From Pseudomonadota bacterium (GTDB lineage: Bacteria; Pseudomonadota; Alphaproteobacteria; RF32; CAG-239): a DNA stretch of 64,000 nucleotides. The translations under genes and the position numbers were made by a program. Where the stretch lies: the NCBI GenBank assembly GCA_918234285.1, contig CAKJXZ020000020.1, positions 14,777 through 78,776 on the forward strand, written 5' to 3'. The notes below the pieces were generated by a model, which was not told the origin of the DNA, made no database searches, and saw only the letters and a list, made by a program, of their open reading frames with translations. Below, in pieces: positions 62,119 to 64,000 of this stretch (position 1 is its first letter; each line of letters opens with the position of its first letter).

Positions 62119-62195
62119 GGGCGCTTAGCTCAGTTGGTTAGAGCCGGCCGCTCATAACGGTCTGGTCGTAGGTTCGAGTCCTACAGCGCCCACCA
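62119..62195 (+). tRNA. tRNA with CAT anticodon, Ile2 (lysidine)-type
   Basis: GGGCGCT/AGCGCCC acceptor stem, TAGCTCAGTTGGTTAGAGC D-arm, anticodon arm with CTCATAA loop, GGTTCGAGTCC and encoded CCA. G1:C72 pairing excludes an initiator tRNA. Ile2 versus elongator Met is by resemblance. Confidence 0.92.
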
Positions 62196-62553: not shown

Positions 62554-62582
62554 TTGCTTTTTTAAGATTCTTTTTTTATACT
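62554..62582 (+). promoter_or_regulatory. sigma70-type promoter
   Basis: TTGCTT-17 nt-TATACT. Confidence 0.65.
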
Positions 62583-62588
62583 CGATTG

Positions 62589-62837
62589 CGTTGGGATAAG
62601 CCCAATTCTCAACTGGATATTGTCAGTCTAAATAACACGGGCAAGAACATAGCTTTTGCATTATGTTGTTAATGCAAAGGAGATTGCCATATTATTGGGC
62701 ATCTCACCGTAACGGGTGGATGCCAGTGAATAAGGCATTACCCAAATAGCTGGGCTACTTTTCGTGTTATTTGTAGTGACAACGTCCACCCACCTGCAAA
62801 GGTGGGTGAAATCATTTGGGCTGAATGGTAGTTCAAA
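62589..62837 (+). ncRNA. Candidate multibranch cis-regulatory RNA / ncRNA upstream of SLOG gene
   Basis: Nested long-range stems plus GUAA- and GCAA-capped hairpins, and alternative pairings next to the TTG start. Confidence 0.55.
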
Positions 62838-63338
62838 TTGAGTAAAACTTGTGCTTTTTTAGGCAATGATTATGATTTTATGAGCGGTCGGAGACGAATT
62901 CGCCGTCCTAATCAGGAATTAAAATTAAAAATTCAGGCGCAAATTATCAATTTAATAGAAAATGAAGATGTCGATAGATTCCTCGTCGGCGAACTTGGCG
63001 GTTTTGAAGAAGATGCCTACGATAGCTTATTAAAAGTTTTTGAAAGTTACCCCAACATACACATTACCCTTGTTGTCTCAAAAATATCCGAGCTTAACGA
63101 CATCGGGATTGATGGTAGCGGTATTATTCATCAACGAAGATTTTGCCACAATTGGATATATCCGGATGAATGCGCCGTGGGCTATAAACGCTGGTGTATT
63201 GTGCATCGCAACCGTTATATTATCGAAAACACCGATTTTATTATTGCATATAACAAATATAAAGGCAGAGCTTATGATTTCTGCAAACAGGCCAAAAATA
63301 AAGGCGTAACGATTATTGAATTGGCAGAAGATGAATAG
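62838..63338 (+). CDS. SLOG-superfamily protein (YspA/DUF1273-like)
   Basis: KTCAFLG, FLVGELGGFE, YPNIHITLV, HRNRYIIENTDFIIAY, AKNKGVTII. TTG start. Confidence 0.75.
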   Translation: MSKTCAFLGNDYDFMSGRRRIRRPNQELKLKIQAQIINLIENEDVDRFLVGELGGFEEDAYDSLLKVFESYPNIHITLVVSKISELNDIGIDGSGIIHQRRFCHNWIYPDECAVGYKRWCIVHRNRYIIENTDFIIAYNKYKGRAYDFCKQAKNKGVTIIELAEDE

Positions 63339-63350
63339 TTTTTACACAAC

Positions 63351-63391
63351 AAAAAATCCCTCGCGGCGGTTAAGCGGCGGGGGATTTTTTA
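63351..63391. terminator. Bidirectional intrinsic terminator
   Basis: AAAAAATCCCTCGC...GCGGGGGATTTTTT between convergent genes. Confidence 0.75.
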
Positions 63392-63393
63392 TT

Positions 63394-63738
63394 TTAGTGT
63401 TTACGGTAATGATACCTCAAAAAATGTTTGCGACAAACCTCGTCTTTATCAAAAAACGATATGATAAAAAAAGGTATATACGCAGTCACATAACTTGCGG
63501 CGAACAGCGCAACTGCCGCAAATATGCCGAGAAAGTATCTTTTACCTAAAGCATGGGGCGCAGAAGTGCTCATCAAGGACTCTATTTCCGGTTCAAAAAA
63601 CCAGAAAGCAAGTCCGACATAACAAATTCCGGCAACTAATACCCAGAACCATCCTACCCACGGAAAATCAAATGTAAACTTAGCTGACCAATGGGCATAG
63701 GCTATCCTTTGTCTCAAAGTCAAATGCTGTTTTTCCAT
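63394..63738 (-). CDS. Hypothetical membrane protein (2 TM)
   Basis: Hydrophobic ORF ending at the terminator. Confidence 0.6.
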   Translation of the reverse strand: MEKQHLTLRQRIAYAHWSAKFTFDFPWVGWFWVLVAGICYVGLAFWFFEPEIESLMSTSAPHALGKRYFLGIFAAVALFAASYVTAYIPFFIISFFDKDEVCRKHFLRYHYRKH

Positions 63739-63751
63739 AAGCAATTACGGT

Positions 63752-64000
63752 TTAGTAGTTCAGATAGGTAATGTTTTTACCTAACTTAAAATTCTTGCCC
63801 AGTTTAAGCACCTTAATGTATAAGGTAACAACCACAACAAGCCAAACAGCCAGAAAGACGTAGCTTACCACACAACGCCAATGAAACATCTCTTGATACC
63901 GTTCCACGGCATCAAAATAGTTTATCATTACCAAGATCAATGGCCACAAAGCCCAGAATATCATCCCGCGGATGATGTTCTGCTCGGTTTTGTAGGACTC
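63752..64000 (-). CDS. Hypothetical membrane protein (5' end beyond the window)
   Basis: The frame is open to the window edge (ESYKTEQNIIRGMIFW...) and has two TM segments. Confidence 0.55.
   Translation of the reverse strand, partial: ESYKTEQNIIRGMIFWALWPLILVMINYFDAVERYQEMFHWRCVVSYVFLAVWLVVVVTLYIKVLKLGKNFKLGKNITYLNY

Follow-up and report, generated by a model that had tools for sequence, protein, structure and literature searches.

The window analysed here, a stretch of 64,000 nt from contig CAKJXZ020000020.1 (assembly GCA_918234285.1) of an alphaproteobacterium of the GTDB lineage RF32/CAG-239, carries near its right end a promoter, a non-coding leader of about 250 nt (62589-62837) and a TTG-started open reading frame (ORF) for a 166-amino-acid (aa) protein resembling YpsA, a protein of the SLOG fold (Table 1). 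The present analysis concerns this leader and its relatives, which are of two types: type I, that of the window, has a pseudoknot between the loop of its first hairpin (hairpin P1) and a downstream TTGGGCT, and type II lacks this pseudoknot and ends in a terminator. The sigma-70-type promoter and the TTG start codon lie where a first-pass annotation of the window had put them, and the tRNA gene that it had noted some 400 nt away proved to be a tRNA-Met gene. The promoter is also conserved, a TAnnnT -10 box occurring at equal distance before the first hairpin in all 42 type-I relatives and a TTG-type -35 box in 40 of them. The 5' end of the RNA is about 7 nt past the TATACT box.

Folded as RNA, positions 62585-62845 reach a minimum free energy (MFE) of -102.8 kcal/mol, compared with -67.6 +/- 4.4 for 200 dinucleotide shuffles of the same region (z -7.95), none of which (0/200) equalled it. 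A scan with Rfam 15 at E<=10 returned nothing credible from the tRNA to the SLOG-like gene. Contigs of relatives (85-99% alike) assembled from four RNA runs, two of them metatranscriptomes and two of doubtful nature, cover 62693-62830 and 62814-63009 and join the leader to the gene; these contigs show neither ends, strand nor level, may include DNA carry-over, and are at best a weak hint that the 3' half of the leader is expressed together with the gene.

The assignment of the gene to the SLOG group by the first-pass annotation is borne out by its homologues and by fold comparison. The protein itself scores 17.9 bits against PF06908, under the cut-off of 27.7, while many of its homologues carry PF06908 in a precomputed table. 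Its AlphaFold model (predicted local distance difference test score, pLDDT, 87) finds Bacillus subtilis YpsA as the top PDB match (2NX2; template modelling score, TM, 0.67; E 2.7e-5), followed by DprA (ranks 2, 4 and 7), ThsA and ShosA. Judged from this predicted structure, the gene product is YpsA/SLOG-like, with a Rossmann-like SLOG fold nearest YpsA. A profile of the SLOG family searched against PDB sequences gave only a chance-level match (4m7o, E 0.041). Overexpressed B. subtilis YpsA stops cell division, as a passage of PMC7376506 states, and by analogy the protein encoded here may plausibly be growth-inhibitory and hence tightly controlled.

Table 1. Coordinates of the promoter, leader elements, gene and flanking features in the window.
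Feature	Position	Strand	Basis or remark
tRNA-Met	62119-62195		359 nt ahead of the -35 box
Sigma-70-type promoter, TTGCTT-17 nt-TATACT	62554-62582	+	Sequence; -35 at 62554-62559, -10 at 62577-62582
Hairpin P1, GTTGGGA/TCTCAAC, loop with AGCCCAA (62599-62605)	62590-62613	+	97.6% of cells paired; 5 of 7 pairs changed on both sides
Small hairpin H2, GGAT/GTCT, loop with a1-like TTGTCA (62620-62625)	62615-62629	+	Covariation
b1-like site AAATAACACGG, 5' strand of P3	62630-62640	+	P3 98.3% of cells paired; 9 of 11 pairs with double-sided changes
Variable spacer hairpin P4, TTTTGCATTA/TAATGCAAA	62654-62678	+	Seen in single-sequence folds of relatives
5' strand of local hairpin (a), GGCATC-T-CACC, sequestering 62715-62724	62698-62708	+	80.0% paired in type I
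C4-like three-way junction, 78 nt	62714-62791	+	Covariation, model R1, Rfam matches of relatives
Junction closing stem (b)	62714-62722 with 62783-62791	+	Covariation
Junction hairpin (c)	62723-62727 with 62749-62753	+	Covariation
Junction hairpin (d), GCUAC...GUAGU, b' loop 62762-62772	62754-62758 with 62773-62777	+	Covariation
a' junction strand UGACAA	62777-62782	+	Sequence
Hairpin P7, CCACCCACCT GCAA AGGTGGGTG, overlapping the 3' strand of (b)	62786-62808	+	Sequence, fold
ACC directly 3' of the closing stem (RCC tail)	62792-62794	+	GCC or ACC there in about 38 of 42 type-I copies
TTGGGCT, pseudoknot 3' strand pairing with the P1 loop, 16 nt ahead of the start codon	62816-62822	+	93.4% of cells paired; 2 pairs changed on both sides
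SLOG/YpsA-like gene, 166 aa, TTG start	62838-63338	+	Pfam of homologues, fold search
Terminator-like GC-rich inverted repeat between A and T runs, 3' of the gene, possibly two-way	63349-63381		Sequence, weak matches to Rfam leader/terminator models

Conserved helices and competing folds

Covariation was assessed as the percentage of alignment cells paired and as a covariation score, both against 500 shuffles and, unless otherwise stated, on the 42 type-I relatives. The nested, MFE-like fold pairs 86.6% of the cells (75.9% in shuffles) and has a covariation score of 0.363 against 0.172, a value reached by 0/500 shuffles. P3 is its strongest helix, and P2 is paired in 90.7-99.4% of cells across the tests made, with many double changes. 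Covariation supports hairpin P1, upper P2, P3 and the loop-to-3' pseudoknot. The conserved structure that the first-pass annotation had proposed to look for upstream of homologous SLOG genes is therefore present in these relatives, and most of the stems it had drawn, TGGATATTGTCA/TGACAACGTCCA, AAATAACACGG/TCGTGTTATTT, TTTGCATTA/TAATGCAAA, GGCATC..GATGCC and CACCCACCT(GCAA)AGGTGGGTG, occur where it had located them. The same applies to its long-range pairing of AGCCCAA with TTGGGCT, two complementary stretches whose pseudoknot covaries.

Two other parts of that model were not sustained. Its second state, a local TTGGG/CCCAA combined with TTTGGGCT/AGTTCAAA, pairs 64.6% of cells against 66.1% in shuffles, 491/500 of which score as high; its small stems TAGC/GCTA and CCCA/TGGG, evaluated jointly with the P4 arm in a gappy alignment, pair 72.3% against 72.1% (234/500 as high). 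Bases of these small stems belong to the covarying helices CCAGT/GCTGG and GCTAC/GTAGT. At P4, at the type-II P3 and at the type-II terminator, the MAFFT alignments were too gappy for pair counts, and these elements were judged sequence by sequence.

Every invariant base of the family falls within the three-way junction. RNAalifold, run on the first 16 sequences, returned an incomplete structure, yet gave the first pointer to the junction helices (b), (c) and (d). These pair 94.7% of cells on the 42 type-I sequences and 97.7% on 93 cores (86 distinct), where the covariation score is 0.409 against 0.217 and 0/500 shuffles reach it. In stem (b), positions 62720 and 62785 (column pair 156/225) are A-U in 27 and G-C in 15 of the 42 sequences, with no exception. 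The overall layout is that of an approximately 80-nt junction composed of a closing stem, a hairpin 1, a hairpin 2 whose loop has 10-14 nt, and a 3' junction strand of 6-7 nt. The a1- and b1-like sites upstream are complementary to a' and b' in the same transcript through P2 and P3, respectively: the loop of hairpin (d) provides the 3' strand of P3, and the strand that joins (d) to (b) in the junction provides that of P2.

Hairpin H2 and P2 together have a covariation score of 0.497, compared with 0.215 in shuffles, 0/500 of which reach 0.497. The 5' strand of P2 lies in the H2 loop after one spare base, which is the classical geometry of an H-type pseudoknot. Position 62617 (A/G) pairs with 62627 in H2 in Watson-Crick fashion (G-C 20, A-U 14, G-U 3), whereas its pairing with 62785 would require a G-U in 13/42 sequences. 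This pattern and that at 62720/62785 favour H2 with stem (b), instead of the basal part of P2 that the MFE fold contains.

Several of these helices compete for the same bases. Hairpin (a) occupies the 5' strand of (b) as well as that of (c) and is incompatible with either; in type II it is paired in 90.8% of cells, with four pairs altered on both sides. Stem (b) uses CGTCCACCC, bases that P7 also needs, and P7, or the type-II terminator, shares CCC/GCCC with the 3' strand of (b). A hairpin followed by a U run is present in all 56 type-II copies examined (52 by script, 4 by eye). Given this mutually exclusive pairing, and given that the equivalent of P7 is an intrinsic terminator in those 56 copies, (a), (b) and the terminator are the anti-antiterminator, antiterminator and terminator of type II.

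Family, genomic distribution and downstream genes

The genome of the window (2.0 Mb, 71 contigs) holds a second full copy of the leader on contig C42, 85% identical and ahead of a gene paralogue with 92% identity, a third that is cut off at the end of C19, and a fourth, more distant and of type II, on C14 (9567-9655) ahead of a family-2 glycosyltransferase gene. A 20-base degenerate pattern covering the most conserved part recovered 111 stretches in species-representative genomes, nearly all of them in metagenome-assembled genomes titled as rumen or gut Alphaproteobacteria, with a handful of chance matches. Five pattern stretches were recovered from viral contigs, three of them true, each with 2-3 copies. 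A hidden Markov model run over the loci collected up to that point gave 139 matches, corresponding to 97 sequences below 95% identity. Model R1, a covariance model of the core (82 positions, 16 pairs), matches 49 of 50 genomes of the genus with 1-61 matches per genome, a rerun on genome G019 giving 62; in other families of the class, sampled by one genome each, the RNA was found in 9 of 150. The copy in the window scores 84.1 bits with R1 and the listed G019 copies 62-68. Searching the RNA with blastn against plasmid and phage collections gave no match.

The two types occur in different contexts. Type-I copies precede SLOG genes of two subtypes in 39 of 42 cases and a secreted homologue of staphylococcal nuclease in the other three. 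The starts inferred for the 39 SLOG genes are mostly non-ATG (35/39: TTG 32, GTG 3; ATG 4), and the start codon always falls 11-22 nt, mostly 18-22 nt, past GGGCTGA. In type II, a ribosome site and an ATG follow about 20-45 nt past the terminator; this gap is too short for a promoter, and therefore the genes must be read through the terminator. Type-II genes encode lipoproteins, PEGA-domain proteins, outer-membrane barrels, BspA-type leucine-rich repeat (LRR) proteins and others. Among 84 downstream ORFs, the families recognised were YpsA (30), PEGA (9), OMP_b-brl (4), DUF2846 (3), OmpA (3), Opacity (2), SNase (2) and singles, and further families include LRR_5 and GT2.

Genome G019 offers a broad sample of such loci (L143-L172). 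The downstream proteins inspected carry signal peptides, often starting with MKHL..., and four of the seven translated (L143, L147, L148 and L149) share a C-terminal tail, ...RYTLPEAD..TSNDNEN.IEWIF, two of these tail-sharing proteins having BspA-type LRRs. The set has the appearance of a variable family of surface proteins whose genes share one cassette in the 5' untranslated region.

Pairing between the b' loops and their upstream sites is private to each locus, since the loops differ between copies and the b1 sites mostly prefer their own. In G019, b' loops are distinct in 27 of 29 parsed copies, and 23 of 29 b1 sites pair best with the loop of their own transcript, at a mean of -9.9 kcal/mol in cis against -4.2 kcal/mol in trans. 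Over two sets of loci (n=40 and n=53), b' loops pair with their own upstream region with mean z-scores of -3.2 and -2.95, respectively.

Likeness to C4 antisense RNAs and alternative explanations

Phage P1/P7 c4, Salmonella IsrK and Xanthomonas sRNA-Xcc1 form a class of leader antisense or 'immunity' RNAs. The leader described here is probably a diverged, unannotated relative of the C4 immunity RNA of phage P1, acting as a self-addressed antisense leader of the C4/IsrK type that gates the YpsA-like gene. Its most fitting place is among the leader antisense RNAs of the C4/sRNA-Xcc1 kind, as a new and strongly expanded variant, and not in a new riboswitch class.

The Rfam models of the class point in this direction. 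RF02221 (sRNA-Xcc1; gathering score 53) gives full-model matches placed precisely on the junction in loci L121 and L143, in 8 of 10 further G019 loci and, with 8 matches, in 7 of 10 loci of other genomes, with scores of 25.7-37.7 bits, all of them in type-II relatives. RF01695 (C4; gathering score 45) scores 25.7 and 28.4 bits in type-II relatives and places its helices on the same elements. On whether the element belongs to a known family, a question left by the first-pass annotation, the answer is accordingly divided: it is a remote relative of C4/sRNA-Xcc1, with a score below threshold in every copy.

The order of elements is also comparable. The record of phage P1 shows a -10 box, a1 (TTGACAG, 7 nt) 32 nt on, b1 (8 nt) 7 nt after a1, a gap of 66 nt, C4 (77 nt), a2, b2 and then icd, labelled 'host cell division inhibitor'. 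The window shows a -10 box, a 5' hairpin, an a1-like site of 6 nt, a b1-like site of 11 nt located 4 nt on, a gap of 73 nt with a hairpin, and the 78-nt junction. As in P1/P7 c4, b' lies in the loop of hairpin 2 (GCUGG...CCAGU in phage P1, GCUAC...GUAGU here), a' is the next strand (CUGUCAA in phage P1, UGACAA here) and the closing stem is succeeded by CC-rich bases. Such a tail (RCC) may matter for RNase P, the enzyme through which the approximately 77-nt C4 RNA is released by processing. The phage P1 leader also has an opening hairpin and a spacer hairpin, with its a1 site at a place comparable to the H2 loop, and the next gene, icd, inhibits cell division, as YpsA does in B. subtilis. On the other hand, hairpin 1 of the leader described here is longer and contains an A-rich internal loop that does not vary, an additional hairpin (a) competes with the closing stem, as does the terminator or P7, a pseudoknot runs from the 5' loop to the ribosome site, and the setting is chromosomal, multi-copy and alphaproteobacterial.

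Some observations on individual sequences touch this comparison. Relative L005 has TTGACAG/UGUCAA as phage P1 does, an identity so short that it may be due to chance. In the phage P1 sequence (L173), UUACGCCC at 2329-2336, just ahead of c4, is complementary to GGGCGUGA at 2348-2355 in the 5' strand of the C4 closing stem, and together they make up a sequestering hairpin like helix (a); this was recognised by eye and is not chosen by the MFE fold. In the viral contigs L136-L138 and in L083, three RNA copies, two of which are divergent, are packed into about 2.2 kb ahead of small ORFs in which no Pfam or PHROG family was found; the arrangement is suggestive of a phage or prophage context comparable to immI of phage P1.

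The other members of the class show likenesses of their own. sRNA-Xcc1 provides the top Rfam match of the relatives, with its full model on the junction, and like the leader it stands upstream of a codirectional gene, in its case the toxin gene symE, an arrangement described for Xanthomonas integron cassettes in 10.1101/2025.06.18.660453. It differs in that the relatives stay below its cut-off, the copy in the window goes unmatched, and sRNA-Xcc1 has been described as a trans-acting small RNA (sRNA), with no a1/b1-type sites upstream of it mentioned in the texts consulted. Annotations of Xylella place sRNA-Xcc1, C4 and isrK next to one another, according to PMC12189769, and entries for a 'c4 antisense RNA' and a 'c4-a1b1' motif appear in Weinberg et al. 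2010 (PMC2864571). IsrK exists as a terminated sRNA and as a read-through mRNA and acts on its own mRNA, tuning a toxic product, and the CI RNA of phage P4 pairs with a complementary site upstream of itself, causing termination, both in the account of a section of PMC4825925. By description, IsrK of the Salmonella Gifsy-1 prophage and P4 CI share with the leader an RNA at the 5' end of the controlled operon, short and long forms and alternative structures; the likeness is one of description, and trans action is theirs, being only proposed for this leader.

Several results weigh against this relationship. No copy reaches a gathering score of Rfam, and neither the copy in the window nor nine other type-I loci match C4 or sRNA-Xcc1 at E<=10, so that, with 0/10 type-I loci matched by Rfam, type I is tied to type II solely through the alignment made here and through R1. 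Conversely, R1 recovers c4 of phage P1 at the correct place but with a weak score (8.4 bits; E 0.11 in a search of 801 nt). C4 acts through a2/b2 sites over the ribosome site of the next gene. Such sites, the defining feature of C4, are missing over the next ribosome site here, and against the 150 nt downstream the pairing of b' loops does not exceed that of shuffled loops (z +0.10, n=40; -0.14, n=53). For the three copies searched in the genome of the window, no second a1+b1 site stood out, only their own sites, antisense partners and loose, chance-like matches. P3 and (d) can be present together only as a pseudoknot, the 3-nt linker of which is sterically tight; the two may coexist in this way or alternate. 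Finally, the evidence for expression comes from metatranscriptome contigs of relatives, possibly DNA carry-over.

Alternatively, the leader could be a new riboswitch, in which the conserved junction or the nested four-way junction binds a metabolite or nucleotide messenger (cyclic di-GMP, c-di-GMP; NAD+; ADP-ribose) and thereby sets the terminator or ribosome-site hairpins. This is unlikely. As in attenuating riboswitches, a conserved folded domain is followed by exclusive terminator, antiterminator and anti-antiterminator helices, so that an expression platform is present in type II, and the internal loop of hairpin (c), GAAUAAGG...AAU, is invariant. SLOG domains bind nucleotides, c-di-GMP riboswitches likewise precede surface-protein genes, as many copies do here, and the genome of the window encodes one GGDEF protein; that genome, 100% complete by marker genes, yielded no member of the diadenylate cyclase family (PF02457). 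Against a ligand, however, the downstream genes (SLOG, PEGA, barrels, LRR, nuclease, glycosyltransferase) form no coherent set and share no common pathway, up to 62 copies occur per genome, and the most variable parts, P2 and P3, behave like addresses and not like a pocket. The invariant stretches are explained by several alternative pairing partners, and the architecture fits a known antisense RNA. Literature searches found no paper linking DUF1273 to a riboswitch, YpsA to a structured RNA or SLOG to a riboswitch candidate. What stands of the switch or RNA-protein module proposed in the first-pass annotation is a conserved, promoter-proximal and switch-like cis leader with exclusive helices before a SLOG gene; its particular two-state model and a metabolite riboswitch are not supported.

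An improbable alternative is a stand-alone, trans-acting sRNA gene that merely adjoins the SLOG gene and has its targets elsewhere in the genome. The examined type-II copies do end in a terminator, the title of Chen et al. 2011 reportedly describes sRNA-Xcc1 as trans-acting, and a junction-only copy at L111 (about 2816-2894, - strand) consists of a TATAAT box, the junction and a T run, without the a1/b1 arm and hairpin (a), that is, of promoter, junction and U run alone. The gap of about 20-45 nt in type II, with its conserved ribosome site, nevertheless leaves no space for a second promoter, the type-I RNA continues to the start codon at constant spacing, and no a+b site in trans was found in the genome of the window.

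Equally improbable is a protein-dependent attenuator, the junction being recognised by the SLOG protein itself, as autoregulation, or by a NusG-like factor. The conserved loop might be a protein site, DprA, a SLOG relative that binds nucleic acid, is among the fold matches, and a large regulon is typical for protein regulators; but G019 has 62 copies of the RNA and 0/30 of those examined precede a SLOG gene, and recognition of the junction by a protein is conjecture. That the copies are a selfish repeat, similar to a miniature inverted-repeat transposable element, or a single-stranded DNA (ssDNA) structure without RNA function is highly improbable: high and variable copy number, copies in viral contigs and the position of some loci near tRNA genes would fit, yet the orientation between conserved promoter and gene start is constant, strand-specific G-U pairs are frequent (U-G in 16/42 at pair 150/231, G-U in 36/42 at 193/216), copies within one genome differ chiefly by compensatory changes, and neither terminal repeats nor target duplications are present. 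The same G-U pairs speak against an ssDNA promoter, and group I intron, T-box, 6S RNA, retron, omega RNA and integron attC were rejected on unfit layout and no Rfam support.

Proposed control and neighbouring genes

Under the preferred reading of the leader as a self-addressed antisense RNA, junction folding, aided by a1/b1 pairing, would remove the 5' half of the terminator and let RNA polymerase pass, and hairpin (a) would block junction folding and hence read-through. P7 lacks a proper U run in the copy of the window, the control of which is probably translational: the pseudoknot between the P1 loop and TTGGGCT abuts a weak ribosome site and the TTG start, which would keep synthesis of the YpsA-like protein low. 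By analogy with IsrK, C4 and CI, the RNA may, in a short or processed form, act in trans on a1/b1 of nascent transcripts of the same locus, the outcome of which would be a locus-specific feedback.

A wider and rather unlikely extension is that a phage-type immunity RNA has been recruited as a genome-wide, address-coded control system, acting on as many as about 60 genes for surface, envelope and SLOG proteins. Each would have a private a/b 'barcode', with its short RNA feeding back in trans on its own locus only, and this could produce gene-by-gene bistable or stochastic expression resembling phase variation but with no DNA rearrangement.

As regulators of phages and genomic islands, C4-type RNAs are regarded as rare. 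The same design is present in 49 of 50 genomes of one uncultured gut and rumen alphaproteobacterial genus, where it heads as many as 62 genes in a 1.5-Mb genome, and most of the leader-bearing genes among the copies examined encode secreted or surface proteins. If the relationship proposed is true, it would represent a large and hitherto invisible layer of RNA-based control in host-associated bacteria; the role of the unexplained a1/b1 sites of phage P1 would become testable, and YpsA/DUF1273 proteins would be added to Icd and SymE as products restrained by such RNAs. For annotation, the family would then need an RNA model of its own, as current Rfam models miss it.

The genes around the SLOG cassettes were also surveyed. 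Two further SLOG paralogues of the genome of the window (G000), at C68:18425-18916 (L022) and C21:30605-31099 (L023), are 59% and 56% identical, respectively, and start with ATG after a normal ribosome site; their upstream regions contain a perfect hairpin, TGAACACAA..TTGTGTTCA, and no C4-like leader. The genes past the two SLOG cassettes, at 63394-64000 (-) in the window and at 104-951 in L002, are shared in part: a small membrane protein ending in ...FWALWPLILVMINYFDAVERYQEMFHWRC... is encoded after both, and the gene between cassette and membrane protein differs, encoding a protein of 116 aa in the window and a lipoprotein of 150 aa on C42. A Pfam search with two of the proteins downstream of the SLOG cassettes found nothing, and PHROGs, applied to eight downstream proteins, yielded nothing useful beyond one weak match of a SLOG-B protein to 'GTP-binding domain'. 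The region past the SLOG cassettes thus looks like a mosaic, variable from cassette to cassette.

As in the window, tRNA genes lie 0.1-1 kb from the leader in L009 (1337-1409), L145 (461-534) and L018 (2509-2595); the tRNA gene of L099 (194-282) is about 7 kb away. A DUF3768 gene is found divergent from and immediately upstream of the leader promoter in L004 (1934-2302, +; PF12599, 107.9 bits), and similar DUF3768 genes, judged by eye from translations, occur in L003, L006 and L016.

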